Shown here one piece after another: positions 2,435 through 60,107 of a DNA stretch of 64,000 nucleotides. Position 1 is the first letter of the stretch. Every line of letters starts with the position of its first letter. Under the pieces are notes generated by a model, which made no database searches, was not told the origin of the DNA, and worked only from the letters and a program-made list of their open reading frames with translations. Made by a program: the position numbers and the translations under genes. Origin of the DNA: a virus; IMG/VR virus record IMGVR_UViG_3300007517_000005, positions 1-64,000 of that record. One strand, written 5' to 3'.

Positions 2435-5005
2435 CTAAGCGGTGGTAGCACCATCAGATAAGGTGCCTTTATAACCACCCTGTCCCTGCTCTACACCATC
2501 CCATAGTATAGGCCCCTTCTTCCCCTTACCACATAGTGACCAATCCTTGAGGAAGTCTAGGTCTAATCCCGGTAATACTATCTTCCCTATCTTACCAGTA
2601 ATAGAATCTAATGCTATATCAGGTAACTTCAATATAGCCTTTACATTAATCCACGACTTAGCACACGCTACTAAGTCATTCAAGAGGTTAGTTAGTGGCG
2701 TACCCATACCTATTACCTTCAATAACCTATCCACCTTCTTGATAGGGTCTAAGTCCCCTAAGAACGATGCCGCTTTATCTAAGGCCTTATCTAACGACTT
2801 ATCTACATCAATAGATACTACATCACCTTTAACAGTTAACATACCCTCCGGTAACTTTAACCCCACCTTATCCATAGCTATACCTAGTAGTTCTGCAGAC
2901 TCTAAGGTACCATCCTTACCTACTGCCTTCCCCAACCCTAGATCTTGCATGGCTTGCTGCAATGATATAGTCTCCCCTTTGACACCTGGTATCTGCCCTA
3001 GGACGGACTCAAGTACATCCCCTACCGCCATACTCTTCCCTCCACTGATAAGGGCTATGACATCCACTAGTGAGGATGGTGCACTAGTATTAGCTATACC
3101 ACCTACACCTAACTGCTCCGCCTTAGTAGAAGGAAGATTACTACTATCCATATACTGTGTAAGAGCTATACCCTTAGCAAACCCCAGTGAGGTCGCCTCT
3201 GCCTTCGATATATTACCACTAGCGTAATCCGCTAATGTAGCTATTACATCCTTAGATGCACCACCAGCTTTGAGGGCCGCATCCACCCACCCTTCACCTG
3301 TCGTAGCACCCTTACTTATAGGGCCGGTACTGCCAGGTTCGCTACGCTCGTTGCTAGCTGACACTGTGGATGTTGGCTTAGGTAATCCCTTGAGCTCAAG
3401 TGCGCGTGTCTTATATACCATGAGTGCGGCTCCGAATGTGGCAGTCAGAGCCGTTGATGATGTCTGTTTCTTATCCCCATCATTACCGTTTACACCCACC
3501 TGATCTACTGCAACCTTACCCGATATACCTACTATATTTAGGGCATCCTCTAACCATATAGGGTACTTCTCTGTGTGCACCCCCTCACTATGTGCATCAT
3601 CACTACCCTCACGCCCCCCCGCCTTCGGGGGCTTCTTCATAGAACTAGTATTCAGAGGGGCATCAGTTGGGGGCATGCAATTGATCTGTGGTACACGCGG
3701 TAATGCTATCGTCGGTAGTTTAGGTAGTTCGGGGAACTCCATACACCCTACAACCTCACTTATTACCTTATTGATTATCTCACCCATCCACCCCGTCATT
3801 GATAACGAGAACTTCTTAGTCAGCATTGTTAGTACACCACCAGCCACACCCTCTAACTTAATACCCTTCGATACATCCGCTAATAGCTTATTGGCTATAT
3901 TGATAGCCTCACCATGCACTACCATCCTCGCCATGCCTGTGACATTGGTAGTCTTACTACCTACTAATGTCGTAGAGGCTGGGGATACTAAGTTAGTACC
4001 ATCTGGTTTCAATGTGTATACGGTGCCGGGTGTAGGATTACCTACTAACCCACCTAATGCCCCTAATAAACCGCTACCACCACCTATCTTACTCAGGCCT
4101 ATACCTATTATCTTCTGCCCTAGTGAGGCCCCTAATGATGCACCTATACCTGCCATGAAGAATGATGGCGCCTCACCCTTAGCAGTGCCCTGCCCAGCAG
4201 TAAACGTTATACCTGTACCAGACGCCAATGTCTGCGTCTCTATGGCACGGGATGTGATATTCGTACCCTTCTCCTCAATGTCAGATGCCTGTATGGTGTG
4301 TAATTTAGTGGTAGTACTCACCTTATATGCGGCATCAGTACTCACCTCATTGAAGTACGTGCGGTTAGATATACCACTCTTCGAGTCCGTACCCACTAAT
4401 GTATTCCTTATCTCGTAGTTGTGGTGCACAAACTTCACATTCTCTGTAGATAGTTCGTGCCAGCTATGTGCACATTTACTAGTGTTACTTTGGCTATTGA
4501 ATGCTATCTGACTATGGGCCCCACCCATTGACACATTATCGCCCTGTATGCGCGTCAGTGGGGCCTCGAATAGAGCGTGTGAATCACTGACAAACCTTAA
4601 CCCATTAGGCTTATCATGGTGCTTCTTTGATGCCTTCATACTGTCACATAAGGCCTTCAACATCATCTCCACTTCCCCCAACATATCATCGGGTGCCTCA
4701 TGCTCATGATCGTGGAGGTGTGGCTTAGTCTTCTCTATCGTCTCCTTATGGCTAGCGAGTATTGTCTTAATAGTCTCCGCAGTAGTGGCAGCGGCCTGTA
4801 AGTATGAACCACTGCCCCCTGTAGCGGATGCTATCTCTGACATGGGCTGTAACGATACCTTTGGTGGTTCCGATATCGTATTGGGACTATCACCTTTCTT
4901 CGATGTACTAGCGGCATCCTTCGTAGATGACACCACCGCATCCTTCGCCCCATCCATTAGGGATGCTATTGCACCTGTTAACCATAAAGGACTATCTGCC
5001 ATCAT
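2435..5005 (-). CDS. Large baseplate/tail-tip-associated protein (function uncertain)
   Basis: 856-aa ORF in the baseplate cluster; S/T-rich beta-like segment and Gly-rich hydrophobic segments. Confidence 0.55.
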   Translation of the reverse strand: MMADSPLWLTGAIASLMDGAKDAVVSSTKDAASTSKKGDSPNTISEPPKVSLQPMSEIASATGGSGSYLQAAATTAETIKTILASHKETIEKTKPHLHDHEHEAPDDMLGEVEMMLKALCDSMKASKKHHDKPNGLRFVSDSHALFEAPLTRIQGDNVSMGGAHSQIAFNSQSNTSKCAHSWHELSTENVKFVHHNYEIRNTLVGTDSKSGISNRTYFNEVSTDAAYKVSTTTKLHTIQASDIEEKGTNITSRAIETQTLASGTGITFTAGQGTAKGEAPSFFMAGIGASLGASLGQKIIGIGLSKIGGGSGLLGALGGLVGNPTPGTVYTLKPDGTNLVSPASTTLVGSKTTNVTGMARMVVHGEAINIANKLLADVSKGIKLEGVAGGVLTMLTKKFSLSMTGWMGEIINKVISEVVGCMEFPELPKLPTIALPRVPQINCMPPTDAPLNTSSMKKPPKAGGREGSDDAHSEGVHTEKYPIWLEDALNIVGISGKVAVDQVGVNGNDGDKKQTSSTALTATFGAALMVYKTRALELKGLPKPTSTVSASNERSEPGSTGPISKGATTGEGWVDAALKAGGASKDVIATLADYASGNISKAEATSLGFAKGIALTQYMDSSNLPSTKAEQLGVGGIANTSAPSSLVDVIALISGGKSMAVGDVLESVLGQIPGVKGETISLQQAMQDLGLGKAVGKDGTLESAELLGIAMDKVGLKLPEGMLTVKGDVVSIDVDKSLDKALDKAASFLGDLDPIKKVDRLLKVIGMGTPLTNLLNDLVACAKSWINVKAILKLPDIALDSITGKIGKIVLPGLDLDFLKDWSLCGKGKKGPILWDGVEQGQGGYKGTLSDGATTA

Positions 5006-6044
5006 TTAACTCCTGTACTATTGCCCCTAACCTCTGCAAGCATGGGGCGTGTGCATCTCTCAGGTACTCCGCTGCCTTACTTATATCTACAGATCTCTCA
5101 TATGGGTCACTGTACGCTCTGATGTACGCATCATTAAGTACCTGTGCTGCCTGCACTACTAACAATAAATCCCACCCCCCAGGTCTACAGATACCCAATA
5201 TGTATGACATGGCCATGCGTAACCCCTGTGGGTCAGATAATACAGAGATCGACATCAGTGGTAATAGTAACTTCTCTACCACTGTTCCCGTTGATGTAGA
5301 TGGTACCCATTCACTAGCTCGCCTTATATATATCAACTCCTCATATAGGGCCCGCCATTGTGGGGGTAGTGTCAGGTGCAGTACATCCTTACCCATTAGT
5401 GGGCATAGCCCTGACCGTAACCATGCAAGTGATAAGGCAGTGATAGTAGTGCATGCCTTCTCTTCCATATCCCCTACGGGGTTGTAACCCTCACCTCGCT
5501 CTAAGTACCAATCCACTGCCTTGGGGAACTCAGTCCCCATTACCTGTACGTTATTCAGTACTTGCTGTATGGGCTCTAAATAACTATCTAAGGTGTTATG
5601 TACCTTATAGTAATCACTACATACTCTGACCATACGCGAGGGGTGCATGTACGTCGTGGGGTGCATGTACATCCCATACCCTAGACTCCCATAAGGGAAG
5701 CCCCACACAGACTCGTGATTAGTTAGCCTATCCATTAGGTAGGTACTAGGTAACTCCTTTCTCAATCCATTGATCTGTACGTAGTATGAGTAGTGCTTAG
5801 TCCTCTCAGGGACATTGATTACTGATACCCCTAGTAATGTTCATAGTAAGGATAGCAAAGTACCATCCACACCACTCTCTATGGACATTAGGTCTACTAA
5901 CCTACCCTGACTGTGGATGGTATTATATACCGTAGCTAACTCCCTCTGGTACTTATCCATAGCACTAGGGGATTCATGGGATAGGGCCGCTGTATCACCA
6001 TCCATCACCATGTAATCATCCGCTCTATACATACCCCACCTCAA
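4992..6044 (-). CDS. Hypothetical structural protein; one 350-codon frame interrupted by a single in-frame TGA at 5841-5843
   Basis: ORFs 5841..6044 and 4992..5765 share a frame and 5840-5766 is open (TLLGVSVINVPERTKHYSYYVQING). Confidence 0.6.
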
Positions 6045-6592
6045 TTATAAGTATTCTCTATTACTACATTGTGCACTAATACCCCCGCCGTACTACTATA
6101 CCCTAGCTCCCTTGTGAGGTACTGTAAACACAATGACCTATCATCTGTATCCGCTACCTCCTTGTACGTTGACCACTCCTGTGTACCCATCAGAGAGTTG
6201 ATATCCAGTAACCTTACATCACGCTCCGTCACCCCCTGTGATACCAGTGACAGCATGTACGGGGATAGTTGCACCCCATCTACTGCATTCAACATTGATA
6301 CTATCTCAAAGGGTGGTAGTGGGTCATCTAATACCCCCGCGGTAGTTGTATACGACCTCTCCCATTGGTAACTATCCCATGCCCCCAGGATACGCATGAG
6401 AGGTGATGTTACTAATAGGAACATCTGCCCCGCTCTCCTATCGCGGTACTGTGGCCCGTACGTGTACCCCATTAAGTACGTGAATATAGCTTCATGTGTG
6501 GCATTACCCCCTTCCCCTGCTATCAATTGACGTAAGGTGAGTAATGCCTCATGCCCCTCATACGCACATGAATTGTCTGTGTAGTAACCCAT
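6041..6592 (-). CDS. Hypothetical protein
   Basis: 183-aa ORF coupled to both neighbours. Confidence 0.65.
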   Translation of the reverse strand: MGYYTDNSCAYEGHEALLTLRQLIAGEGGNATHEAIFTYLMGYTYGPQYRDRRAGQMFLLVTSPLMRILGAWDSYQWERSYTTTAGVLDDPLPPFEIVSMLNAVDGVQLSPYMLSLVSQGVTERDVRLLDINSLMGTQEWSTYKEVADTDDRSLCLQYLTRELGYSSTAGVLVHNVVIENTYN

Positions 6593-7948
6593 CTAACACT
6601 CCATAACTGAACATGGATCTATACGCTGATTATTATTATCGTACACTTCCAAATGTAAGTGGGGGCCGGTACCTCTGCCAGTATTACCCGTATAACCAAT
6701 AAGTTGCCCTGCCTTTACAGAGGTGCCATCTGCTAAGCCTGCATACCTATCCATGTGTGCGTAGAATGTTTCCCCTATACTACTGCCTGGGTGTTTAACA
6801 GATAACCAATTACCATAACCCGCTTCTACCCCTTTCTCTCCTATCACACCATCTGCAGGCGCATATATTGGGGTACCAATTGGTGTACCGAAGTCTACTC
6901 CTTGGTGCATCCTACCCCAACGCATACCCATTGGTGATGTTAATGGGAATCCCTTGACTGGGTTATTCAGACTGCCTGCCTTTGGGGGTGTTGTATTGCC
7001 TCCCATACTCGGCTTAGAACTACCTGTGTTAGAACTACCTGTGACAGTCGCCACAGTGGTCTTCGTACTCATTGAGCCATACATAGGCGTAGTAGATTGA
7101 CCACCCTCTATTCCTAATGTAGTGACCTTTAATGTACACCCCCTATATATCTTACCCATCTGCATCGTCCAATCCCAGGGCGCAGTCTTCGTACAATCTC
7201 TTGTGTACGTCCCTATGATTACTGAGTTATTATTGGTACCGAGAGAGGCTGGAGCACTACCTCCACCAGGTGATGTACCACTCTTGTCTAGGGTAGTAAA
7301 CCCCTTATCGCCACCTATTGCTGGAGGTGGTAAACCTGATAGAGAACCATTAGTGGGTATACCTATCTTCTGCATAGCATTTACTATCTCATCCATCCTC
7401 CTCTTCTGATCTTCAGAGTGCTTCTCCATATTCGCCCATAACTCGGGGTGCGATACGCCTGTTGGATTAAATCCATCTACACCGACCCCTGCATCCCCTG
7501 CATATATTCGTGCTTGTAATAATGTATCTGGAGTTATACCATTCTTAGCTAAGTAAGGTAGGGTAGGAATAAACCCCTCCCTTGCCATCTTTGGTGATTG
7601 ATTCCATATATCTAGATAACTAGACATCAATAAGGTGTTAGTTGGGTCTAATCCAGCACTACGCATTAGAGGTGCCACCCTCTCCGCCTCCGCTTTTAAT
7701 ATAGGGTGGTACATGCGATCGGCCTCCTCTGGACTTGAACCTTTATAGTAAGCCCCATTGACTGAGTAATTACCTACATTCCAGGCACCATTGCCGGGGT
7801 CTCTATGCCCATCGTAGGGCCTAGTACCATCAGACAGTACTGTAAATCCCCCATCAGCAGTCCTATTACCTTCTGCCATACCAATAATCCTACCTATAGG
7901 ACTATTGATAGCTCCCCCTGCAAATAGTTTATCTATCCCTTCATCCAT
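6593..7948 (-). CDS. Virion-associated lysin: N-terminal lysozyme-like domain plus C-terminal M23 peptidase
   Basis: M23 motifs HQGVD, YAHM, TGRGTGPHLHLEV; N-terminal AEGNRT..GHxDPGNG domain. Confidence 0.85.
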   Translation of the reverse strand: MDEGIDKLFAGGAINSPIGRIIGMAEGNRTADGGFTVLSDGTRPYDGHRDPGNGAWNVGNYSVNGAYYKGSSPEEADRMYHPILKAEAERVAPLMRSAGLDPTNTLLMSSYLDIWNQSPKMAREGFIPTLPYLAKNGITPDTLLQARIYAGDAGVGVDGFNPTGVSHPELWANMEKHSEDQKRRMDEIVNAMQKIGIPTNGSLSGLPPPAIGGDKGFTTLDKSGTSPGGGSAPASLGTNNNSVIIGTYTRDCTKTAPWDWTMQMGKIYRGCTLKVTTLGIEGGQSTTPMYGSMSTKTTVATVTGSSNTGSSKPSMGGNTTPPKAGSLNNPVKGFPLTSPMGMRWGRMHQGVDFGTPIGTPIYAPADGVIGEKGVEAGYGNWLSVKHPGSSIGETFYAHMDRYAGLADGTSVKAGQLIGYTGNTGRGTGPHLHLEVYDNNNQRIDPCSVMEC

Positions 7949-8523
7949 TACATAGCCCTTATGTTGCGTATAGCTGTTGCAATAGCCTCTGCCCTACGTG
8001 TCTGGTCAGCTACATGACCTTTCATATCAGTCCATAGACTAGCGTGTGCATAGCCTGTAGGGTTGAAGCCGGGACCTACCCCCTCATCTCCTGCATATAC
8101 CCGTACCATTAAGACTGTCTCCTCCGTGATGCCATTATCTACTAGGTACGGCAATGCACATAAGAACCCATCAATTGCCATCAATGGTGATTGATTCCAC
8201 ACATCTAAATAGTTAGCCATTAATAGGGCATTAGAGCTATCCAACCCCATTGCTTCTATAACAGGGGCAACTCTTATTGCCTCCCCTTGGAGGATCTTAT
8301 GGTACATACTATCTGCATATTCTGGACTACTGCAGCTATAGTACTCACCATTGACTGAGTAATTACCTACATTCCAGGCACCGTTGCCTGGGTCTGTATG
8401 CCCATAATAACTATCAGTTACGCCCCCATCAGCGGTTCGATTACCTTCAGCTAATCCTATGATTAAACCTATGGTGCTATTGAGGGCACCACCCGTGAAT
8501 AATGATTCTACATTATGTGTCAT
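7948..8523 (-). CDS. Putative lysozyme-like protein, paralog of the N-terminal domain of 6593..7948
   Basis: Shared AEGNRTADGG, GHxDPGNGAWNVGNYSVNG and YLDxWNQSP blocks. Confidence 0.7.
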   Translation of the reverse strand: MTHNVESLFTGGALNSTIGLIIGLAEGNRTADGGVTDSYYGHTDPGNGAWNVGNYSVNGEYYSCSSPEYADSMYHKILQGEAIRVAPVIEAMGLDSSNALLMANYLDVWNQSPLMAIDGFLCALPYLVDNGITEETVLMVRVYAGDEGVGPGFNPTGYAHASLWTDMKGHVADQTRRAEAIATAIRNIRAM

Positions 8524-8544: not shown

Positions 8545-9069
8545 CTACTGAACACCTACCCCAAAGTATATCTCTTTCTGTGGCTCCCACTTATTTACAT
8601 CCCTCCACAACCTATCCATATCTACTAAACATGGATCTCTCTCAGTAACTTCAGGGTCTAGTACCTCATCATGCAATACCACCTGTGCCCTCTCTATACC
8701 CATCTGAGATATCAAGTATGACAGCGAGTAATATATCTCTACTGTGTACGGCATAGGCCCTTCTAAACATATAGAGTATGCGAACGGGTCTACACTACCA
8801 TTAACTGATTCCCCTAAGTATGATGATGGGCCGCATGCTGACGCTTTAACGTACGCAGGTACTAGGTACACTATCTCCCCATCCCTACGTATTACGGTAT
8901 GGTAACTGGCCTTAAACCTATCATCTAATGACCATGATAAGGCACCCTCCGCAGGCCCATTAGAGTCATGTAATACTACTATCGGTACGCAAAGGCCCGT
9001 GGATATAGCACTCCCTGGCAGTCGCAGCCCTGCGGCACCTCCCCTAGGGTCGTGACCTACAGCACTCAT
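8545..9069 (-). CDS. N-acetylmuramoyl-L-alanine amidase (Amidase_2-like)
   Basis: IVVLHD, ASYHTVIRRDG, SICLEG, VVLHDE and RDP motifs; two 9-aa micro-element insertions at the N-terminus. Confidence 0.75.
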   Translation of the reverse strand: MSAVGHDPRGGAAGLRLPGSAISTGLCVPIVVLHDSNGPAEGALSWSLDDRFKASYHTVIRRDGEIVYLVPAYVKASACGPSSYLGESVNGSVDPFAYSICLEGPMPYTVEIYYSLSYLISQMGIERAQVVLHDEVLDPEVTERDPCLVDMDRLWRDVNKWEPQKEIYFGVGVQ

Positions 9070-13468: not shown

Positions 13469-13534
13469 TGAAAGAAGAGTGCCGTAGGCCACGACCCCTA
13501 GGGAGTGCTGTATGGCTACAACCCTTCTTGAGTA

Positions 13535-14344: not shown

Positions 14345-14466
14345 ACATTATACTCTCCTTATAATAATCCCTTACCCATGCTGGAGCATAAGTAAGGGCG
14401 GTATGTGTACTATTCAGTACATCAGAGATGCTGGACATCTCTGATGCAGTACGTTGTAGCCTATAA

Positions 14467-50235: not shown

Positions 50236-50295
50236 GATTATACGTGGGGTATGTCTATCCCCACTACCACACACATAGCTATGGAGACACACAAT

Positions 50296-50590
50296 GTCAG
50301 GAACTCAAGGCGAAAGCCACTGAGCTTGTAAGACGCAAGTTGAAGCAAGCTATTCTGACCAGCCTAAGTCGTTACGCTCTTAGCGTTGCTAAGTCTTAAC
50401 TGACTACGTTATTTGAGTCACGACACCCTGGGATCTTGCTAGTCCTCTGCCCTGTCGCTAGTGGTTAAACAGTTCTAAAGTCACTGGAACAGTGCTACTA
50501 GCCTAGCTACGCTCCCAGCGTAGCGACCTAACAAACTCTTATAACATTGGCGAAGCAAACATTACCTAAGAAATTAGAGGCCCCACAAGG
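50296..50590 (+). ncRNA. HEARO / IscB omegaRNA scaffold (interrupted by two 25-nt micro-elements)
   Basis: Conserved HEARO-like sequence blocks once the inserts at 50367-50391 and 50506-50530 are removed. Confidence 0.75.
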
Positions 50591-50806
50591 GCAACCGTTA
50601 TGCGTACAGGGTTGTGAGATTTGAGATGGTAATTGTCCCATCGAAAGTGCCGTAGGCTACGACCCTTGGGGAGTACACTACAAAAGTACACCTAGTCAAA
50701 CAGCCCCAAGGCGGTAATGGATAGATTCACGGTGGTTCAAACCACCCGCGTTGTTTCCCTCTCAGGGCTAAGGCCACTGAGTTTCCCACTTACCGAGGTT
50801 TTCTAT
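50296..50806 (+). mobile_element. Non-autonomous IS200/IS605-family IscB element (HEARO/omegaRNA retained, iscB deleted)
   Basis: 5' GTCAGGAAC hairpin end; GACCAGCCTAAGTC..GACTACGTT..GACACC..GTTAAACA..AACATTGGCGAAG..ACATTAC; 3' hairpin; inserted within ATGA. Confidence 0.8.
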
Positions 50807-51236
50807 GACCACTACAGATATCAATGACATCTTCTTCTACGCCGCTGTTCATAAGTTACGTTACCCCTCCTGCACGGGTATGCTCACTACTGAGCAATTG
50901 CTAGACTTACCCCTTGTGTATAGTGGGTCGGGTGCACCACGCCCTAACTTAGATGATACCGCTAAGGCTATCAATATCGAACTCCGTGGCTATGCTGAAG
51001 AGTCCTTCGTGCGTAAGGGTGTCAATCGACAGGAAGCAGAACTGAGAGCAGCCCTTGAGATAGTTAAGTACATCATCGCTTACAAGCAGGATGAGGATAA
51101 GAAGAAGGCTGATAAGGTAAGTAAGGCTTCTAAGAGAGCTACATTATTGGAGGCCTTTGAAGCTAAACAGAAGGCTGAGTTAGGCGCTATGTCAACAGAG
51201 GATTTACTTAAGCAGTTGGCTGCCTTGGAGGATTAA
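50805..51236 (+). CDS. Phage coiled-coil protein
   Basis: KLRYPS..G.LTTEQL.DLPL...LD..AK; EESFV. Confidence 0.75.
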   Translation: MTTTDINDIFFYAAVHKLRYPSCTGMLTTEQLLDLPLVYSGSGAPRPNLDDTAKAINIELRGYAEESFVRKGVNRQEAELRAALEIVKYIIAYKQDEDKKKADKVSKASKRATLLEAFEAKQKAELGAMSTEDLLKQLAALED

Positions 51237-51366
51237 TGAAGTTCTATTACTGCGTAAGGTAGAACAAGAAGATTACTGTATCAGAGATGCTGGACATCTC
51301 TGATGTACTGGCTTAGCAGTCTCACGTTACCCTCAATAATGAGACATATGCTGGTGGCACATCGAA

Positions 51367-51480
51367 CGCTTGGTATTTAAGCCTGACCACAAGCTAGTCC
51401 CTCAAACTGAGGACGGTGGAATTGATTGGGGTCGAGTGGCACGAGTTAGTATTTTCTGGATAGGAGATTATCATGACTGA
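51367..51480 (+). pseudogene. higB: C-terminal remnant of a HigB-type toxin
   Basis: RLVFKPDHKLVPQTEDGGIDWGRVARVSIFWIGDYHD*, overlapping the higA start; no in-frame start codon. Confidence 0.7.
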
Positions 51481-51778
51481 AGTTTTACAGCCTTTTACCC
51501 CGGATTGGATCTCGCCGCCAGGGGAGACGATAGCTGATTTAATTGAAGAACGGGGCTGGAGTCAGGTTGATTTAGCAAAACGCCTGGGCTACACCTCGAA
51601 GCACATAAGCTTGTTGATCAATGGTAAAGCGTCGATCACAGAAGAAATAGCACTCAAATTAGAAGATGTATTGGGCAGTAGTACAAGCTTTTGGTTGAGC
51701 AGGGAAGCACAGTATCGCGCAAAGCTGGCTCAACAGGGAGCCGGCGCTCTTACGTACAAGGAGAACATTGGCTCATGA
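51473..51778 (+). CDS. higA: HigA-family antitoxin HTH (truncated, no ImmA/IrrE domain)
   Basis: FTPDWISPPGETI..LIEERGWSQ.DLAKRLG...ISLLINGKA.IT.E.ALKLE..LGSS.SFWL. Confidence 0.85.
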   Translation: MTEVLQPFTPDWISPPGETIADLIEERGWSQVDLAKRLGYTSKHISLLINGKASITEEIALKLEDVLGSSTSFWLSREAQYRAKLAQQGAGALTYKENIGS

Positions 51779-52164
51779 TGACTGTTAATACTGCTGGCCC
51801 ATTATCGTGTCACGCACAACTAGCTGGTGGTAAACTACTGCACCTCCATAAGTGTACCGATGATACCTCCCTGCTGCGACAAGACTATTGGGTCTATGGT
51901 ATTACATTGCCTTCAATAGGTGAGACCTATACTGAGATGTGTGAAGAACATCGAGCATATTTAGAGTCTCCAGAAGTTATTAATTGGATACTCAACACCT
52001 ACCACCTGAAAGAAGATGTCTTCAATAAAGAGTATACTTACCATAACTTTACCTTTGAATGTTTGGATATTGACCATAGAGCTACATGGGTTTTCATTAA
52101 TGAGGCAGCCTATATTTATGAGTTCACACTTGATTGCGATACTCTCTACTTCTGCAGTCCCTGA
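51775..52164 (+). CDS. Hypothetical protein (start MMTVN after AAGGAG)
   Basis: RBS; truncated paralog begins at 52231. Confidence 0.6.
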   Translation: MMTVNTAGPLSCHAQLAGGKLLHLHKCTDDTSLLRQDYWVYGITLPSIGETYTEMCEEHRAYLESPEVINWILNTYHLKEDVFNKEYTYHNFTFECLDIDHRATWVFINEAAYIYEFTLDCDTLYFCSP

Positions 52165-52423
52165 AGTTTGATACACATAAGGGGGCAGTAATATACCCGC
52201 CCTCCCTACATACAAGGAGAACATTGACTCATGACTAATAACTCACTACAGTATAACGTACGCTATGGCTTCTTAGATGGCGGTGAGCTACTACACCTCC
52301 ATAAGTGTGTGCGTACAATGAGGCGTTAAGCATATAGTTATGGGCCGGCCTATTGTCACACAGAGAAGTAAGTTGATGTCAGTTATTTAATGAGGCAAGA
52401 GCTATAAAAGAGAGAGGATAACT

Positions 52424-52756
52424 ATGAGATGTATATACACTGTCCACACTGGCATATACGAGGAAAGAGACGATAATCTGTGGCCTACACCGAGACCCCC
52501 TATGTTAGATTACGTGTACAAGTGCACGGTGAACTACTCCTGCAAACTACCACCATCTATTAATGCCTCCGTGTGGGAATTGGTAAAGCCCCTTGGTATG
52601 CCAAGCATGTGGTGGGCTACTGATGTATTGACACCCCCTTCTATAGGCTGGGATGTGGATGTACCTGGTCATACCACAGAAGTCAGGATCATAGGTATGA
52701 AACAGTATAAGCATCATCTAGTAGCTTCTTGTAAGGTTCTACATGAACAGAGTTAG
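52424..52756 (+). CDS. Hypothetical protein
   Basis: ORF with GAGG RBS. Confidence 0.6.
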   Translation: MRCIYTVHTGIYEERDDNLWPTPRPPMLDYVYKCTVNYSCKLPPSINASVWELVKPLGMPSMWWATDVLTPPSIGWDVDVPGHTTEVRIIGMKQYKHHLVASCKVLHEQS

Positions 52757-52838
52757 ATATGCCCCCCTTGTAAAGGTGGAGTCAATGAAGGGAATTACCG
52801 GGTTCTAAGTTAACTTAGATAGTTTATTAAGCGTCACT

Positions 52839-53154
52839 ATGAACTACATAGACATTCACGATAAGATCATTGGTACCACGCACAGTCTAGAATTATTACC
52901 GCCTTCTATTTTGGAGGATGTACTGAATACCTAGCAACGCTGGGAGCGTAGCGACCTACTGTACATTCAATTATGTCAGAGATATGCAGCACCCGTCTAT
53001 CAAGGTAAATATACATGCTGCTATGGATACGGGTATGGGTACTTACCGCACTGTGTGCACTGTATTGATTGATAATCTACCTAGCATACTCTTCTTAGTG
53101 AATACTGATCGTGAAGAATATGAGTACTCCTATGAAGAGCTGCAACTTAGTTGA
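52839..53154 (+). pseudogene. 96-aa ORF disrupted by a 25-nt micro-element at 52934-52958
   Basis: Removing the element restores an uninterrupted frame MNYIDIHD...EELQLS*. Confidence 0.65.
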
Positions 53155-53180
53155 CATATGAGTGTACAATGTCGTATTAT
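53151..53180 (+). promoter_or_regulatory. Sigma70-like promoter
   Basis: TTGACA-N18-TATTAT. Confidence 0.5.
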
Positions 53181-53635
53181 ACATGTAACGAGTTGAGGGC
53201 AGGATTATAAATTATGTTACCCCTGAAGAAGCAGCACAGCACTTAGGTGTTACTTAACCCATAACTATAAGGTTATACTTCTGCTTACCTTTGAGACTTC
53301 CAACATGGTGGCCAAGGTAAAGAGAAGGATTGGGTCTAAGACTGCCAGGGTCATGTTAACGAGGTTCAAGCAGACATTAAAGCATCAAGCTGAACTTTGC
53401 TCCCGTGAGGTAGTAGAAGTGTCTGAAGCCTACACCAGTAAGACTTGTACCAAGTGCGGACAAGTACATACAAAGCTAGGTCGCTACGCTCCCAGCGTTG
53501 CTAGGCAGTTCCAAGATCTTTAGGTGCCCTTGGCATTATGCTAAGGGCTTTGAGGGATATCTCCACTACATTAAGTAGTGCTATCATTGACCCCTGAGTA
53601 GTGATATTCAGGAATGTTCAGTGTAAATATATCAG
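53151..53635 (+). mobile_element. tnpB: Internally deleted IS607-family element (tnpA N-terminus plus tnpB C-terminal relics)
   Basis: NYVTPEEAAQHLGVT (IS607 TnpA HTH start); FETSNMV...SKTAR.ML, EAYTSKTCTKCG zinc ribbon, GIMLRALRD; ends approximate. Confidence 0.8.
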
Positions 53636-53764
53636 CTAGGTGGTACACGTATGTTGTACGGTAAGGCATACATCTATGAGCGCAGAGTCAGTGGCTATGT
53701 CGAGAACACAGAAGGGTTAGGGGTTTTACTAGACCGTAGATAAACCCTACACACACAATAAAAA

Positions 53765-53792
53765 GGGGAGTGCTATCAGATAGACACTCCCC
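53765..53792. terminator. Hairpin, probable terminator
   Basis: ggggagtg-ctatc-a-gatag-a-cactcccc with an upstream A-tract. Confidence 0.5.
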
Positions 53793-53842
53793 CGTTTGCG
53801 TGGTACACTATAAATATCAACCTAAATAGGGGACCCCGCAAT

Positions 53843-54604
53843 ATGTTTAATATATCACTGACCACCGCTACATACAACCCGACGGCAGCTACAGGCATCA
53901 AGAGAGCCATCTACACCTACTCTCAAGATAATAGGGTTATTAAGTCATCCTCCAAGAAGAGAGTCCTTAAGCTGCGTGGGAAGAGGGTTGCTAATGGCCC
54001 CCTATATAATAATGAATCCCTACGCGCACCATTAGATGAGATATCTACTTCTATACTCACGATAGTCGGTGTACTGTATATGGGTGCAGAGAGGAAGTCT
54101 ACAGTGCCTGTACAGTGGGTGCAAGATAGACGTGGTAACTGGAGACGGGCTATCACACAGAAGGCATTCAGAGCTCTTCCACAGTACATGCAGCAGATCG
54201 CTATAGATAAAGGCGTGGATGTTAGAGGGAGTGTTACCTTCTCACGCTGCGTAATGGCGTGGGCTGGTATTACTGTCAGTGGTCTCGATGTACACCACGT
54301 CAATATGGATACTACAGATGACCGTCTCGGGAACTTACAGGCATTAACTAAGGCTGAACATGCTGCCGCACATGCTGATAAGGATGACCTCCTATGGGAT
54401 GCTGATTGGTACGAGTACAACTCATACTGTGAAGGACTGCTGCGTATTAATCAGACCTTCTTATTGAGTGATGAGGATATCGCAGTAGCTATAGCGGCTG
54501 CATTAGAGCCTCCTACACACGAGATAGAAGAACTATCTGATGCTGATCGGTGGGACCTGGCATGGGCTGCAATGTGGGCTGACGAAGAGATAGAGATAAT
54601 GTAA
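53843..54604 (+). CDS. HNH endonuclease with acidic C-terminus
   Basis: DVHHVNMDTTDDRLGNLQALTKAEHAAAH. Confidence 0.85.
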   Translation: MFNISLTTATYNPTAATGIKRAIYTYSQDNRVIKSSSKKRVLKLRGKRVANGPLYNNESLRAPLDEISTSILTIVGVLYMGAERKSTVPVQWVQDRRGNWRRAITQKAFRALPQYMQQIAIDKGVDVRGSVTFSRCVMAWAGITVSGLDVHHVNMDTTDDRLGNLQALTKAEHAAAHADKDDLLWDADWYEYNSYCEGLLRINQTFLLSDEDIAVAIAAALEPPTHEIEELSDADRWDLAWAAMWADEEIEIM

Positions 54605-54621
54605 CTACTACAAAGAGAGAT

Positions 54622-55212
54622 ATGAATATAACTGGACGATGGGATGCTGTGAGCCTGACGGGAGAAGGGACCGGCCCTTACATTACTGTCACTGGTGAGA
54701 CACTCACGACTACTATTACCATAGATAATGATAGGCAAGTTAGTATTAATATCATTGATCTGTCCAGCCCATTAGGTGTTGGGGTAGATGTAGATACAGC
54801 GTATGAGGCAGTGATTGGCCTTGAGGCGCAGCTAACTCAAGTCTTCAGTGTATGGTCGATAGAGCAGTACCTCAAGGATAAACTACTATCACAAGTATCA
54901 TTGGTAGGCTGGGGTGGCCGTAACTGGCTACTACAGTGTAATGATGAAGGACTATATTGGCAGCTATTACTTAAACCTGGTAGACGAGCTAATATAACCG
55001 TCACAGTCTACCTAGACATAGATCTAGATGCTTACTTAAATCTTCATGAGCGTACTGTAACTAGACGATATATATGCCTTGAAGCTAGAGATATCCATGG
55101 GGTAGTGGCAGAGATACACGCAATAGATATCCCCAAAGATGTACTGATTATAGATGATCAATTAGTTAGGGACTACTTACCCCAGGATTATATAGCGGTT
55201 AAAGATGTCTGA
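54622..55212 (+). CDS. Hypothetical protein
   Basis: 196-aa ORF. Confidence 0.65.
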   Translation: MNITGRWDAVSLTGEGTGPYITVTGETLTTTITIDNDRQVSINIIDLSSPLGVGVDVDTAYEAVIGLEAQLTQVFSVWSIEQYLKDKLLSQVSLVGWGGRNWLLQCNDEGLYWQLLLKPGRRANITVTVYLDIDLDAYLNLHERTVTRRYICLEARDIHGVVAEIHAIDIPKDVLIIDDQLVRDYLPQDYIAVKDV

Positions 55213-55224
55213 TAGGTAATAGAT

Positions 55225-55746
55225 ATGGCAAAGCTATGGTTGGTAGGGCGTACAGATACCACGAGGAATGAGTACCTTGAGATGGTTGTATCTGCAGGTA
55301 CGAGAGAGCAGGTACTGAGTATTAATCCCAACAATGGGAAGGTTATAGAGTTATATAAGGATGGTAGTGGTTACTACTGTGCGGGGTGGACTGATCCCGA
55401 ACACCTAACTATAGAATGTATTGGTGCCTCAGTACATACAAGTAACCGCCTCATACTAACATCATGGAATGAAGGGGAGAATGGCACACCCTCACCACCA
55501 TATACTAAGGGGGGAGTACAAGATACTATCACTAACTTATACCTAGTAGATAGGGGGTTCTGTATCTATTACTCCTTTAATAAGGTACTCATTGCTTGTG
55601 ATAGTTTAGAGAGTACAACTGCTACATCATTACTAAATGAGATGTTGGGTATCAACTGGTACCAGGAACGGTTCGCATATATAGAGTGCGTTGGTACGAC
55701 CAATATACACGGCATAGTATTAGCATCTTACGGGGCTGGCTCATGA
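55225..55746 (+). CDS. Hypothetical protein with two copies of the (K/N)L(W/Y)LV..R domain
   Basis: Internal repeat ending IEC(I/V)G; paralog at 47209. Confidence 0.65.
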   Translation: MAKLWLVGRTDTTRNEYLEMVVSAGTREQVLSINPNNGKVIELYKDGSGYYCAGWTDPEHLTIECIGASVHTSNRLILTSWNEGENGTPSPPYTKGGVQDTITNLYLVDRGFCIYYSFNKVLIACDSLESTTATSLLNEMLGINWYQERFAYIECVGTTNIHGIVLASYGAGS

Positions 55747-56126
55747 ACATAACTAAGCTCAAAGAGATAATCTACTGGAGTCTTGAGGGTGTACAGGTGC
55801 CGCGAGCCACGCCCCTTCTTGAGGTATTGACACACATCAAGTGCCATACTACAGCGCCCCTATTAAGGAGTCCTAGAAAGCCACGCCTACGTGAGCACTA
55901 CTCTGTAAATCCCACAGTATCTATATATATTAAGGGGGTTAATAATGCCATTGACTCAACCATCGTATACAAGAGTAATGGCTACGTAGATATAGAATCA
56001 TTAATGCCTGATATACAGTTATGGATAGAGGAGAACCATAGCATTAGTAATTGGGAGAGAGAGTCGCGGGAGTATGATAGGGTCACCAACTACCACCTAA
56101 ATGGTATCGATTACCCCAACATATAA
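55743..56126 (+). CDS. Hypothetical protein
   Basis: ATGA overlap with the upstream stop; carries a family-A-like insert. Confidence 0.55.
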   Translation: MNITKLKEIIYWSLEGVQVPRATPLLEVLTHIKCHTTAPLLRSPRKPRLREHYSVNPTVSIYIKGVNNAIDSTIVYKSNGYVDIESLMPDIQLWIEENHSISNWERESREYDRVTNYHLNGIDYPNI

Positions 56127-56372
56127 CAACCCCTTACTTATCTCTCAAGGAGACTACGGGGGTACCGATACGTAGTGAACTACCAGCAACAATAGTAGAT
56201 ATCAAGGTATGTAAGCTAGGGGGTAGTATCCATATATACTATGGGGATAATGAGTGGAACTATAACATAGAGTTCCCAATAACAGTGCAGCGGATACTGG
56301 AAGCCATCCACACTAACTATAAAGGGGCTAGAGACGTACCCTCTATATTCTAAAGGTATAACAGGGAGAGAT

Positions 56373-57167
56373 ATGTCTGATTACTCTGGGGATGCCACAT
56401 TAGAGGATTGGTTGAGTAAGGAAGTATTCAATAGCCCGGTACCTAAAGAAGTAGTAGATAAGTTCAAGGGGTACCGCACGGGTATAGAGAATGATGTAGG
56501 GGCCTGGATAAGTCAATCATATGATGAATGGCACATAGGTTGGAGGAGTTGGGGTAGGGGGTACAATACAGTGGACGAGGAGTTTGAGGTAATAGTACAA
56601 TCATGTATCGCACAAGTAACTAAGTACAAACTATCACAGGTAGACATGGCTAGATATACAGGCAAGGCTACATTAGAGGATTGGTTATCTATAGAGGTAT
56701 TTAAATGCCCCATCCCTAAAGAAGTAGTAGATAGATTCGAGGTGTACCGCACACGTGTAGAGGATGATGTACAAGCTTGGATAGATCAGAGTACAACCCA
56801 CCGTCAAGGATGGAACTTATGGGGCAGGGGGCGCGATGACTTAGATCACTCGTTCTATGAGTTAGTAGAAGTATGCACCCCTTATGTTGAGGCGTATATA
56901 GAGTTCCATGGATTACCTAGACATGATTGTACTATGAGCCTGTACATAGTATTAGGTACACCAGGAGTAGTATCAGAAGCAATGCTTGTAATGGCAGATA
57001 CATTGGAGCAGGCATTAGATTATAGTTGCCACATGACAGGCAATGATAGGGCTAGTGCTAAGGGGTACTTAATGTGCGATGTCAATGGTGAGGCGCAGCA
57101 CCTATACGGTAATGTATCTAAGGCTTTGCAAGAGTATGTACAGATCCATAATGCAGGATTATTATGA
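56373..57167 (+). CDS. Hypothetical protein with a tandem duplicated ~90-aa domain
   Basis: YSGDATLEDWLSKEVF..PKEVVD / YTGKATLEDWLSIEVF..PKEVVD. Confidence 0.7.
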   Translation: MSDYSGDATLEDWLSKEVFNSPVPKEVVDKFKGYRTGIENDVGAWISQSYDEWHIGWRSWGRGYNTVDEEFEVIVQSCIAQVTKYKLSQVDMARYTGKATLEDWLSIEVFKCPIPKEVVDRFEVYRTRVEDDVQAWIDQSTTHRQGWNLWGRGRDDLDHSFYELVEVCTPYVEAYIEFHGLPRHDCTMSLYIVLGTPGVVSEAMLVMADTLEQALDYSCHMTGNDRASAKGYLMCDVNGEAQHLYGNVSKALQEYVQIHNAGLL

Positions 57168-57331
57168 TAGATAGTATACCGGGTACATTAGAAGTAGAGT
57201 GGTGTATCTCAATGTACATAGTAACAATACACACATGACTCTAGCCGGTATCAAGGTACCAGAAGGCGTGATATCCAATCAGACCATAAAGGACTTCATG
57301 ATATCAGATGAATACGTACAGTACATAGTAA

Positions 57332-57631
57332 ATGACCAATGAGGTAATAGACATGCAGATAGTTGTAATGATAGCGATAGTAGCAGCGGTGTGGGCAGCC
57401 CTCGCCCCAGGTAAGGCCCCACGTAAGAAATCAGGTGTACCGTCTAGTATGGCAAGGATACGCAAGCTAGAAGGGTTAAGGAATAGGGGGGCCTTAGTTA
57501 TGAAACTAGGGCGAGGTACTAATAGTGTGGAGGTAATAACCAGAGATAGTAGGAAGATATTAGATGAGCTAATAGAACAGGAGAAGGATGGCCTGATTAA
57601 TATATTCAAGGGGGAGGAATACAATGATTAA
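57332..57631 (+). CDS. Small membrane-anchored protein
   Basis: N-terminal hydrophobic helix IVVMIAIVAAVWAAL. Confidence 0.6.
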   Translation: MTNEVIDMQIVVMIAIVAAVWAALAPGKAPRKKSGVPSSMARIRKLEGLRNRGALVMKLGRGTNSVEVITRDSRKILDELIEQEKDGLINIFKGEEYND

Positions 57632-57935
57632 TGACATCAGGCAGTGGGTACAGGAGAATGACCACTTATCATTAATGTGGTGTAATGGAGATGAATTACA
57701 GTTCAAAGATGGCATACATTATTACCGCATCTTGCACGATGCAATAGATGTAGCAATAATAGAAGGATTCTGTAGATGGGGGCCCGATACCAAATACTAC
57801 ATGATGTACACGCCTTACTCTAAAGAAGAGCTAGTACGACTAACTAAAGTATGTAGGTACTTAACACAGCATGTAGTGAACACACAAAGTACTGAGATAG
57901 ACTTAGCAGATCTAATGGATATAATCAACCAATAA
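57624..57935 (+). CDS. Hypothetical protein
   Basis: GGAGG RBS, coupled. Confidence 0.6.
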   Translation: MINDIRQWVQENDHLSLMWCNGDELQFKDGIHYYRILHDAIDVAIIEGFCRWGPDTKYYMMYTPYSKEELVRLTKVCRYLTQHVVNTQSTEIDLADLMDIINQ

Positions 57936-57947
57936 AAAGAGAGAGCC

Positions 57948-58529
57948 ATGAGTAATCAACAGACCGGTACTACTACAGAACTACCAGTATATGCACCTTC
58001 ATCATGGAAGTTAAATGCAAGTACGTCATTAGAGAGTACACCTGCGCTATCACCAGGGCGGCAATTAATAGCCTTAGTGGGTAAGAAGAATACGGGTAAG
58101 CACACGTACTTAACGGACTACTACAAGAGTCTTAGTAATGGGGTGTACGAGTATTTAGCATATGAGAGATCTCTTGAGGAGAATGGCATACACCCCCATG
58201 AGCAAGTAGAGTACGTCAATCAATTAAGAGTGAGTGGGGAGTATACGCCAACGCACGATGTATTACCAGACCCTTACATGTTCGTGACGTACAGCCCTTA
58301 TATACTGGATGGCATAGGGTGGGATGAGGCACACAATGTAATCTTCTTCCACAGATGTGGGAAGGGTAGATTCTACCGTGGGTCATTACTATGTAACCCC
58401 ACATTCATGAGTAGCTTAACGAGGATGAGGAGTGTACTAACCCTCGGCCAGTTCTGGTACACACAGGGTGAGGCATGGTTAGAGGAGTGTGGCGAGGATG
58501 TAACAGACATAGGTTTAGTACTACCATAG
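57948..58529 (+). CDS. Reduced ABC/AAA-ATPase-like protein
   Basis: LVGKKNTGK (Walker A-like), ENGIHPHEQ, VTYSPYILD. Confidence 0.55.
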   Translation: MSNQQTGTTTELPVYAPSSWKLNASTSLESTPALSPGRQLIALVGKKNTGKHTYLTDYYKSLSNGVYEYLAYERSLEENGIHPHEQVEYVNQLRVSGEYTPTHDVLPDPYMFVTYSPYILDGIGWDEAHNVIFFHRCGKGRFYRGSLLCNPTFMSSLTRMRSVLTLGQFWYTQGEAWLEECGEDVTDIGLVLP

Positions 58530-58811
58530 GACATTGTAAGACCAGTATGCCGCCTGTAGTTTATTCTTATAGGCGGGCTTACCATCTTTAGTCTTAATAG
58601 CCGCATGCCTAGAGCGATAATTAGCCCTACGTTTAGGGTCGCGGTGAAGGGTGTAATCACTCATCGTGCTATCGCCGAAGTGTAGTAATCGGCAGTTATC
58701 ACCTATGCAGGCAAATACTGCCTTCTTCTTACCAGTACGACAACTCTTGACGGGGGTATTGGGTGTCATGCGCCTCTTCGTACCAGGGATTAATGGTGGT
58801 GTACGTTTCAT
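58521..58811 (-). CDS. Small basic phage protein
   Basis: HFGD..MSDYT.H.DPKRR.NYRSRH...AAYWS..VLW pattern. Confidence 0.7.
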   Translation of the reverse strand: MKRTPPLIPGTKRRMTPNTPVKSCRTGKKKAVFACIGDNCRLLHFGDSTMSDYTLHRDPKRRANYRSRHAAIKTKDGKPAYKNKLQAAYWSYNVLW

Positions 58812-58862
58812 GTAAACAATCTATATAGTAATACACAATGCAAGCAGTAATGGAGGGGTGAT

Positions 58863-59231
58863 ATGCAAGCAAGTAATAAAGGGGCCGGCCCCCATAATAT
58901 AAGAGATAACAATAGGTCGTTAGCACTCCCGACAGGGAGGTATAGCTGTAATAGCCAAGAAGTGCCGTGCCGCGACCTGGAGACGGTACCTATTGCGGAT
59001 AGTGATTACCTTGAGGATATATTAAAGGGTGCAGATGAAGAGACACTAGCAAGTATATTAGAATGTACTGTAGAGGAGTTATATGAGCTCCTAGCGGGTG
59101 ATAAGGAACTAACCATGGAACACATAGATAATCTATCTGATAGTTATGACAGTACGCTAGGGAGTGTATTCAGGGTGGCATGTCAGCTAGCTAATGCAAT
59201 CAATAATCATACGTCAGGAACCTCAGCCTAA
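58863..59231 (+). CDS. XRE-like HTH protein (start uncertain)
   Basis: ETLASILECTVEELYELLAGDKELT. Confidence 0.5.
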   Translation: MQASNKGAGPHNIRDNNRSLALPTGRYSCNSQEVPCRDLETVPIADSDYLEDILKGADEETLASILECTVEELYELLAGDKELTMEHIDNLSDSYDSTLGSVFRVACQLANAINNHTSGTSA

Positions 59232-59303
59232 AGGTATGAGGCTTGAAAGAGTAATCTAACAAGCCGTCCTATAAGGACGGGGTTTCTACCCAATTAACAA
59301 TAT
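59213..59303 (+). mobile_element. Minimal IS200/IS605-IscB relic (left and right ends fused)
   Basis: GTCAGGAAC hairpin end as at 50296, then CCGTCCTATAAGGACGG hairpin, ending at ATGA. Confidence 0.6.
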
Positions 59304-59646
59304 GACGTGGGGTCTATTCTGGCACATGAATAAGGGATATAAAGACATGAGAGATAGCCGCATAAGTAGAGATGATCTGCATAGGTTACATAATCTGAAT
59401 GTACTATTTAGCACGGTGCTAGATGTAATAGATGATTGGGATAGGGTAAACCCAGACGCTACTAAAGAAGATAGGGAGGCTTATAGAGATCATACGTTCA
59501 GTATAACGTGGGATCTATTCTGGCACATAAATAGTAGTATCACGGTATCTGTTGATTATTATGACCCAGACACCACCTGCGAAGAAGACATGAGAGCTAG
59601 GTTAGATACATACAATAGTGCAAGTCAATCACGGGCATATAATTAG
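59302..59646 (+). CDS. Hypothetical protein
   Basis: 114-aa ORF; TWxLFWHxN occurs twice. Confidence 0.6.
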   Translation: MTWGLFWHMNKGYKDMRDSRISRDDLHRLHNLNVLFSTVLDVIDDWDRVNPDATKEDREAYRDHTFSITWDLFWHINSSITVSVDYYDPDTTCEEDMRARLDTYNSASQSRAYN

Positions 59647-59765
59647 AACTTGCCCAGATAGTGTGCTATAGTCATCATTAGTATGATGTGTGGGAGTACT
59701 AGCTTGTAGTGTATATCCTTCTCCCTGGAGAGGGTGTACACTAAGGCATGGGCTCAACCCACTAA

Positions 59766-59837
59766 TGCTGGGTAGCACAGTGGCAGTGCGCTTGATTGTT
59801 ACTCAAGATGTCGTAGGTTCAATCCCTACCCCAGCAG
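59766..59837 (+). tRNA. trnN: tRNA-Asn (GTT)
   Basis: Acceptor TGCTGGG/CCCAGCA, D stem GCAC/GTGC, anticodon stem CTTGA/TCAAG with GTT, T arm GTAGG-TTCAATC-CCTAC; CCA not encoded. Confidence 0.92.
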
Positions 59838-59840
59838 TTA

Positions 59841-59876
59841 TATAAAGCCGGCCTTTAATGTGGGGCCGGCTTTATA
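59841..59876 (+). terminator. Hairpin after the tRNA
   Basis: tataaagccggcc-N10-ggccggctttata, 13-bp stem. Confidence 0.65.
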
Positions 59877-60107
59877 GTGCCGTGACTACGCCCCTTCAAG
59901 ATAGTAATGGAGAACTCTGATGCAATTATCTGATGAAGAAGAGCAGTTAATATAAAGGTAATACAGCCATGAGTAATAGATGGAAGACACCTATACATTT
60001 AGCAACGCTGTGAGTGTAGCGATTTAGAGTACTGGAATAACTTTATCCCATACGAGGATAAGGTAGCTGTACTCAATAGTAATACCAAGCAGGATCTAAT
60101 AAGAGCT

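Follow-up and report, generated by a model that had tools for sequence, protein, structure and literature searches.

Very small DNA elements, probably mobile and recently active, in a large Microcoleus-type cyanomyovirus lineage

Introduction

The closest described counterparts of the elements reported here are the small dispersed repeats (SDRs) of Nostocaceae chromosomes, which comprise several families of ~21–27-nt units that insert precisely at short specific targets, nest within one another and are present or absent between relatives. SDR1-8 were reportedly described in Nostoc punctiforme and other Nostocaceae by Elhai and colleagues in 2008, with SDR5 said to be inserted inside HIP1 sites. 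The mobility of DNA units of ~25 nt has been a question since that time; units of this length have no room for a gene, nor for normal transposase-binding ends. Here we analyze a comparable system in the IMG/VR virus record IMGVR_UViG_3300007517_000005, an 85,511-bp contig of which bases 1–64000 (hereafter, the window) were examined in detail. The window carries repeated units of 24, 25, 26 and 27 nt (families C, B, A1 and A2) and of 32 nt (family D). A first-pass annotation made from the letters alone had likened these units to SDRs, and the likeness holds for their behavior but not for their sequences, which were not found in N. punctiforme, other Nostocaceae or any other cyanobacterial genome searched. 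In addition, the carrier is a lytic phage lineage rather than a chromosome. Because the sequences are unmatched in the searched cyanobacteria and the carrier is a phage, we do not assign the units to the Nostocaceae SDRs. HIP1-linked insertion, as for SDR5, is ruled out, as the 85.5 kb contain 0 HIP1 sites (GCGATCGC).

Several other systems bear comparison. Like the REP/REPIN-RAYT and IS200/IS605 systems, the phage has short palindromic units with a family-specific 3–5-nt cleavage or target motif and precise loss, and IS200/IS605 relics (TnpB and an IscB-type omega RNA) are in the same genome. Unlike REP/REPIN-RAYT, no RAYT or TnpA gene was found, 14 of the 34 copies are genic and most are single units rather than doublets; unlike IS200/IS605, the flanking repeat co-varies with the target. 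PATEs, which derive from IS200/IS605, have separate left and right hairpins and insert 3′ of a tetra- or pentanucleotide without duplication; the phage units show specific 2–5-nt targets, one short hairpin each and duplication-like flanks. Rickettsia palindromic elements (RPEs) are likewise selfish palindromic DNA that lies in frame in genes and is translated as extra peptide segments. RPEs, described by Ogata and colleagues in 2000, are reportedly 100–150 nt long, chromosomal and old, while the phage units found in genes are 21–27 nt, reside in a phage and are polymorphic. The mobile G+C clusters of yeast mitochondrial DNA (PMC4478555) and the double-hairpin elements of fungal mitochondrial DNA are hairpins of ~30–40 nt with AG- or TAG-type flanking repeats; they share population polymorphism and occasional in-frame copies with the phage units but differ in sequence, reside in an organelle and are not hierarchically nested as the phage units are. 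[quoted passage not shown] However, these are 50–800 nt long, carry terminal inverted repeats and are shared with hosts, whereas the phage units are 24–32 nt, for the most part have no such repeats and were not found in host genomes. No parent insertion sequence was found for the phage units, and they are too short to be classed as MITEs.

A system of this kind in a ~85-kb phage fragment rather than a 9-Mb chromosome allows insertion, nesting order and selection each to be read directly, and close relatives without copies exist. It would be a compact natural case of some of the smallest mobile DNA known, and a route by which phage proteins gain 7–9-residue loop insertions.

Results

The window belongs to a large cyanomyovirus related to Microcoleus phage My-WqHQDG. 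Among the products of its open reading frames (ORFs) are a portal, a tail sheath and a major head protein. This last protein shares 83% identity with its My-WqHQDG counterpart and ~42% with those of the Ma-LMM01 group of Microcystis myoviruses, and synteny with My-WqHQDG spans window positions 1–36 kb. My-WqHQDG is a jumbo phage assigned to Microcoleus via CRISPR spacers (bioRxiv 10.1101/2023.04.12.536658); its GenBank record (163 kb) is partial, making the absence of an ORF there uninformative. Among other IMG/VR contigs, G003 is syntenic with window positions 14.3–46.8 kb at 65–79% nucleotide identity. Synteny with other regions of My-WqHQDG places contigs G001 (51 kb) and G002 (62 kb) in the same phage clade as the window. 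Near-identical DNA was found in freshwater, aquatic, glacier and ice metagenomes, and a megablast search of window positions 40–60 kb against isolated phages returned a single match of 388 nt. We compared positions 40030–60029 with Logan contigs from four other metagenomes (runs X2–X5). The comparison with X2–X4 is informative only where contigs cover the stretch, and evidence at the contig level concerns allele presence, not allele frequency. Every genome involved is incomplete, and gene calls are ORF-based, with homologue support where stated.

In each unit, an 18–27-nt body is joined to a single copy of a short target specific to the family. Family A1 (unit 26 nt, with a 27-nt variant in genes) has the body CCCCAAGGGTCGTAGCCTACGGC between AC(T) flanks; A2 (27 nt) has the body CC..GGGTCGCAGCCATGCGGC between ACT flanks; B (25 nt) has the body GTCGCTACGCTCCCAGCGTTGC between TAG flanks, with a TAA variant; C (24 nt) has the body CCCTGTCGGGAGTGCTAACG between ACCT flanks; and D (32 nt) has a body that is a 27-nt perfect hairpin between TACTG flanks (CAGTA in reverse). 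The targets proposed in the first-pass annotation (..AC for A, CTA for B, ACCT for C and CAGTA for D) thus held up, the fuller forms for A and B being AC(T/C) and (C)TA(G/A). The core said there to be shared by A, B and C is indeed common to all three, although it is GGTCG(C/T) rather than GTCG(C/T) and lies on the reverse strand in C; CTCCC also occurs in all three families. Family D alone folds stably (z = −5.0; −11.3 kcal/mol for the copy at 14415), while folding is weak in A, B and C (z −1.2 to −2.0). Inverted arms of 8 nt are found in B, and A and C have no terminal inverted repeats.

At ≤6 substitutions, the window contains 10 copies of B, five of C, five of A1, seven of A2 and three of D. 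These 30 matches compare with ~0 expected, the mean being 0.00–0.01 per family in 100 first-order Markov simulations. Chance origin of the repeats is therefore ruled out, and so is an assembly artefact, since at least seven samples, assembled independently, yielded the same units. With nested, partial and profile-only copies added from an nhmmer profile search, the total in the window is ~34, close to the ~35 first counted; the four families of that count become five here, A being two sub-families, and more families lie at 76–82 kb. Copies are in both orientations and some are nested. Outside the window, positions 76–85 kb of the same contig hold >20 further copies; the part at 76–82 kb has the additional families and three-deep nests, such as A1[B[further element]] at contig positions 78672–78752. 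The two 343-residue ORFs flanking the repeat-rich 76–82 kb region are not paralogues.

Five lines of evidence on presence and absence were counted as independent: an alignment of RlaP proteins, contigs from other samples, copies of a HEARO RNA module, the Rfam consensus for that RNA, and relatives free of elements. The direction of each event, insertion or deletion, was inferred from outgroups. Filled and empty alleles coexist in present-day populations.

The most heavily occupied gene (43700–44746) encodes an RlaP-family nucleotidyltransferase (PF10127), which took five units and is 42 residues longer as a result. A 27-nt A1 variant (44086–44112, +) is read as FPRVVAYGT; a first C copy (44226–44253, +) is read as LPVGSAND; a second C copy (44250–44301, +) is split at CTA by a nested 24-nt B variant (44268–44292, −); and a 27-nt A2 copy (44649–44676, −) is read as AAWLRLPRS. 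The first-pass annotation had proposed that excision restores the motifs KHT[FPRVVAYGT]YIGYA and KHAVHS[AAWLRLPRS]VRLL. In agreement, FPRVVAYGT and AAWLRLPRS are in 0/11 aligned RlaP homologues; all 11 lack both peptides. The closest homologue, P0002 (93% identity over aligned columns), carries LPVGSAND once, at the place of LPVGSAND-LPVGSA[SNAVSVAT]ND in the window, and none of the remaining aligned homologues has the C peptide. Among 80 loci found with the RlaP alignment, none was element-bearing, and RlaP alone matched nothing in viral contigs. The same gene is polymorphic between metagenomes. Logan contigs from runs X4 and X5 leave out exactly 27 nt at 44084, the position of A1. One X5 contig leaves out exactly 24 nt at 44268, the nested B; as this contig accounts for only part of the summed X5 depth (436/970), both alleles are present in that sample. 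As a separate observation, a 13-nt tandem duplication (GTTGATAGGCGTG x2, 44729–44754) frameshifts RlaP 60 codons before its end. Since the conserved C terminus is still readable in the next frame, this break would be very recent, or else a variant of this one assembly.

Contigs from the other metagenomes also lack or replace six further stretches with elements, including those of the five copies described here. In run X2, 17 other letters stand in place of 40438–40504, which holds a 25-nt B (40448–40472, +) where no gene is supported, and CTGCT stands in place of 41199–41241, which holds an intergenic 25-nt B (41210–41234, +). Run X5 lacks 45056–45330, including an intergenic D at 45160 (45151–45191, −), and has 27 other letters for 58918–58989, overlapping a C copy (58914–58941, −) that is read in frame as RSLALPTGR within ORF 58863–59231. 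The D copy at 51279 (51274–51310, +), located just after the stop codon of ORF 50805–51236, is replaced by a different 30-nt hairpin in X3 and X4. Conversely, run X3 has an extra nested unit at the B copy at 53480.

Orthologous genes of related phages provide further empty sites. The first-pass annotation had read MS[AVGHDPRGGAAGLRLPGS]AISTG as an interrupted motif. This is the N terminus of an amidase (8545–9069, −), and the My-WqHQDG orthologue lacks the 18 residues, which follow codon 2. The 54-nt in-frame insert consists of a 27-nt A2 unit (9011–9038, +) and a 27-nt A1 variant (9039–9065, +). In ORF 12971–13468 (+), a 27-nt A1 variant (13173–13199, +) and a 27-nt A2 in tandem with it (13199–13226, +) correspond to an 18-residue insert, HAAPPQGSWPTALLGSRS, missing from the My-WqHQDG orthologue WOL31300.1. 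A 27-nt B variant (46214–46238, +) in ORF 45788–47185 is read as SLRYPALLG, and these nine residues are a gap in the G003 orthologue. Between genes, G003 and My-WqHQDG have other sequence in place of a 32-nt D unit with an inverted loop (14415–14451, +), and their aligned sites lack the A2 copy at 24109–24136 (+). Throughout G003 and the 163-kb My-WqHQDG record there are zero copies of any family. The pattern that the first-pass annotation had named as contrary to mobility, relatives sharing the same peptides with no empty sites, was thus not what we found: empty alleles occur in proteins, metagenomes, HEARO paralogues and two phages.

The D loop differs relative to its flanks, being TCCAG at 14415–14451 and CTGGA at 45151–45191, at 51274–51310 and in the G001 and G002 copies; this flip-flop suggests a hairpin that was extruded and copied. 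A1 and A2 also join into a 54-nt heterodimer, found in two phases that are circular permutations of each other, A2-A1 (9008–9067) and A1-A2 (13162–13234), and a longer A1/A2 array lies at 2745–2883 of contig L192 (Ga0105045_10000393).

Three elements lie inside a module of ~510 nt (50296–50804, +) that starts with a HEARO RNA, of the IscB omega-RNA type (Rfam RF02033; 123.7 bits, full-length match), and ends at the ATG of ORF 50805–51236. Further copies of the module are in G001 (7570–8064 and 18932–19417), G002 (61851–62168, at the contig end) and L192 (4629–5087). In all of them, similarity runs from HEARO position 1 to an ATG and the ORF that follows differs at each locus. Clean gaps set the five copies apart: 25 nt at two different B copies and 26 nt at A1. 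A palindromic 25-nt B variant inside the HEARO (50503–50527, −) is found in this phage only, with a 25-nt gap in the four other copies. The 26-nt A1 in the leader behind the HEARO (50647–50673, −) is an exact 26-nt gap in 3/5 copies. A further 25-nt B inside a HEARO hairpin (50368–50392, +) is in all four module copies that cover the site and is thus an old insertion. Both B copies are also 25-nt inserts relative to the Rfam HEARO consensus (covariance model). The modules contain no nuclease (no IscB gene) and stand before four different genes, where the My-WqHQDG spacers are 16–66 nt; My-WqHQDG and G003 lack them. The module may be a domesticated or non-autonomous OMEGA-derived leader. The ORF behind the window copy (50805–51236) is phrog_2018, and summed contig depth at 50702–51368, which includes it, was 30–100x that of neighboring bins in runs X3 and X4. 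Many other genomes in those samples therefore seem to carry the gene or its leader.

A second IS200/IS605-family relic, a TnpB C-terminal remnant (53227–53578, +; PF07282, 39 bits), is framed by B copies that form a perfect 29-nt inverted pair (52930–52958 and 53477–53505). The My-WqHQDG homologue is intact, at 561 residues. The left 25-nt B (52931–52955, −) forms one arm of the pair; the right 25-nt B (53480–53504, +) lies inside the remnant and shifts its frame by +1. In run X2, the DNA between the pair is missing. The repeats appear to drive deletions and rearrangements between copies.

Elements are under-represented in genes: 14 of the 34 copies lie in supported genes, while ~86% of the window is coding (p = 2e-9). 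Genic copies occupy variable linkers or termini, and their translation in frame adds 7–9 residues. In intact genes, copy lengths are 21, 24, 27 or 54 (27+27) nt; B, canonically 25 nt, occurs there only as 21-, 24- or 27-nt variants, and A1, canonically 26 nt, only as 27 nt. Copies of B at 25 nt, of A1 at 26 nt and of D at 32 nt are confined to intergenic positions, the RNA leader and the broken TnpB; the TnpB copy, the sole canonical 25-nt B in coding sequence, shifts the frame of a gene that was truncated already. These lengths match the first-pass claim that genic copies are multiples of three and that 25-, 26- and 32-nt copies lie between genes or in dead genes, with the RNA leader as an additional location. 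Part of this length pattern is automatic: whatever is inserted in an open frame has to be a multiple of three. The informative part is that canonical 25- and 26-nt forms are never in intact genes and that genes are under-hit. Within families whose canonical length is not a multiple of three, the canonical length was seen in none of six genic copies but in all nine non-genic copies that could be measured (Fisher p = 2e-4), which bears out the association of length with coding status suggested earlier.

Three further genic copies fit this description. A shortened B of ~21 nt that lacks the loop (3339–3357, +; nhmmer profile match) lies in ORF 2435–5005 (−) and is read as ASNERSE in a Ser/Thr/Pro-rich linker that is variable relative to My-WqHQDG (tblastn). 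A 24-nt C unit plus ACCT (19763–19790, +) is read as VVSTPGRE in a variable linker of ORF 19561–20418 (−). A third, also C (32470–32497, +), is in frame in ORF 28340–40033 (−), inside a stretch of ~165 residues that is missing from G003.

The families are restricted to this phage lineage. Exact or degenerate searches with the A1, A2, B and D cores matched, among other contigs of the 2.9 million IMG/VR records, only G001 and G002, and the C core had no exact match in any other IMG/VR contig. In JGI metagenomes, B was found only on the IMG/VR contigs and on two more contigs from the same two samples. The B core had no exact match in 185,579 species genomes, and A1 at ≤3 mismatches had none in 401 Cyanobacteriota or in five named filamentous strains, among them Nostoc punctiforme NIES-2108, Oscillatoria PCC 10802 and Kamptonema. 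A 731-nt stretch with A2, B and C was searched against 251 Cyanobacteriales and against all 144 genomes of the Kamptonema family, with no match. BLAST-type searches detect near-perfect 25–28-nt copies, as they did in G001 and G002, though diverged copies could be missed.

The other copies in the window are not in supported genes. A canonical 26-nt A1 (13479–13505, −) is intergenic, and a decayed A2-like copy (13505–13540, −) follows it at or just past the end of gene 13535–14344 (−). An A2 (27270–27297, +) and the 5′ half of a B (28310–28322, +) are also intergenic. Within 40034–41264, a stretch without a supported gene, are an A2 (40118–40145, −), a partial or decayed B detected by profile (40475–40503, +), a 28-nt form of A2 (40711–40738, −) and a C (40793–40820, −). 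The last 25-nt B (59999–60023, −) is intergenic, between TAA repeats; a tRNA-Asn (GTT) gene (59766–59837) lies 160 nt upstream of it.

Discussion

The units are discrete and target-specific, occur as filled and empty alleles, are depleted from genes and are confined to one lineage. A model that accommodates these data, to which we assign a probability of roughly 80%, is that they are ultra-small non-autonomous mobile DNA elements recently active in one large Microcoleus-type cyanomyovirus lineage. Insertion would occur anywhere the family motif is present, and selection would then remove frame-breaking copies from genes, leaving 21-, 24- and 27-nt versions in linkers and loops. Because each insertion recreates the motif at the far end and the motif is also present inside elements, head-to-tail arrays and nests up to three deep are formed.

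How the units move is less certain. The likeliest of the mechanisms considered, though still one of low probability, is mobilization in trans, in which an HUH/Y1-type enzyme of the IS200/IS605-RAYT kind would act on the units as single strands. The enzyme would come from the host or from a portion of the phage genome beyond the sequenced contigs, and the element's own short hairpin and ends would define the cleavage site. Consistent with this proposal, each family has a specific 2–5-nt target, as in IS200/IS605, together with small palindromes and precise absent alleles. Both orientations of the D loop are seen, suggesting hairpin extrusion, and IS200/IS605 relics (the TnpB remnant and HEARO at ≥4 loci) are in the element-bearing lineage.

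Several points weigh against mobility in general or against this enzyme in particular. Presence and absence alone could reflect either insertion or precise deletion between flanking repeats. A Pfam scan of 71 ORFs identified 12 families, including an HNH endonuclease (53843–54604), kinases, lysis enzymes and the TnpB zinc-ribbon fragment, but no transposase beyond that fragment, no integrase and no reverse transcriptase. A six-frame search for Y1 transposase (PF01797, E ≤ 0.1) found none in the incomplete genomes G000–G003, which together cover most of a relative's genome map. IscB (PF14239) was likewise absent from G000–G003 and My-WqHQDG, in a weak search whose control matched nothing in any genome. 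The first-pass annotation had suggested looking for a reverse transcriptase, HUH or recombinase gene; no reverse transcriptase, Y1 transposase or integrase appeared in G000–G003, and its idea of a possible single mobilizer draws on the shared core. A host enzyme would be expected to leave chromosomal copies, and the cyanobacterial sets searched yielded none. Moreover, flanks co-vary with the target (TAA..TAA versus TAG..TAG; ACC..ACC versus ACT..ACT), and 11/14 A copies agree in this way; the pattern resembles genuine target duplication, an outcome that Y1 transposition does not produce. Hairpins are weak in A, B and C and, to our knowledge, a single 24-nt hairpin is far below any substrate shown for TnpA or RAYT. 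Nevertheless, none of the four rival explanations considered below fits better than HUH-type mobilization.

Somewhat less probable than an HUH-type enzyme is that the units form a phage-endemic class whose bodies encode the choice of a 2–5-nt target, and that they are moved by machinery other than a known transposase, such as a replication or repair protein or a HEARO-linked activity. If so, this phage would be the first system for working out the mechanism of very small mobile repeats.

Two rivals, each unlikely and about equally so, draw on the flanking repeats. In one, the units are extreme miniature MITEs moved by a DDE-type transposase that makes a staggered cut and a 2–5-nt target duplication; for B, the enzyme would be IS630/Tc1-like (CTAG/TA). 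Co-variation of the flanking repeats with the target variant and the 8-nt inverted arms of B both fit this explanation. However, no transposase gene was found in ~230 kb of lineage sequence, A and C lack terminal inverted repeats, and the duplication lengths (2–3, 3, 4 and 5 nt, depending on family) would require several enzymes. We also know of no transposase-binding end pair as short as the 18–27-nt bodies.

In the other, no dedicated enzyme is involved. Double template switches at flanking microhomologies would copy the units and slippage would delete them. All units are bounded by direct repeats and most contain a palindrome, making them classic slippage substrates, and the failure to find a mobilizer would be explained. 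Genes for RecA, a PD-(D/E)XK nuclease and a family A polymerase are also present in the related phage, and the tandem A1-A2 arrays come in two phases. Yet microhomology of 2–5 nt cannot explain why four or five sharp-ended, full-length units are reused >50 times in 85 kb instead of assorted random fragments, and My-WqHQDG and G003 have the same replication genes but no copies.

It is very unlikely that the units are host SDR-type repeats, acquired from and shared with the cyanobacterial host and spread by host machinery. Size, nesting and in-frame behavior do resemble those of Nostocaceae SDRs (PMC5861425 and PMC4390886, which cite the 2008 work of Elhai and colleagues), and Microcoleus is the predicted host of the phage clade (bioRxiv 10.1101/2023.04.12.536658). 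However, the five named strains and the 401 Cyanobacteriota, 251 Cyanobacteriales and 144 Kamptonema-family genomes yielded no copies, the B core has no exact match in the 185,579 species genomes, and PMC5861425 reports no SDR outside Nostocaceae. Least probable of all is that the units are functional phage signals (terminators, protein-binding sites or packaging sites) kept by selection: although 3/3 D copies lie just past gene ends with a strong hairpin, and other strains have a different hairpin at 51279, the idea is already contradicted for A, B and C, which occur in both orientations, inside coding sequence, an RNA gene and each other, and are missing from close relatives with the same genes.

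Other features of the contig

Two giant ORFs are present, one of 3897 residues in the window (28340–40033, −) and one of 3253 residues beyond it (contig positions 64794–74555, +). Near the left end, adjacent genes at 6593–7948 and 7948–8523 are paralogous (60% identity over 195 residues), and the duplication is also seen as a DNA repeat. A 33-nt hairpin motif, TAGTAGGCCCTACCCATGGGCCTATTATTGTAC, which is not among the mobile families, recurs between genes of a rightward operon, at window positions 62758–62790 and 63442–63474 and at contig positions 64767–64799 and 74631–74646; it is probably a transcription signal.

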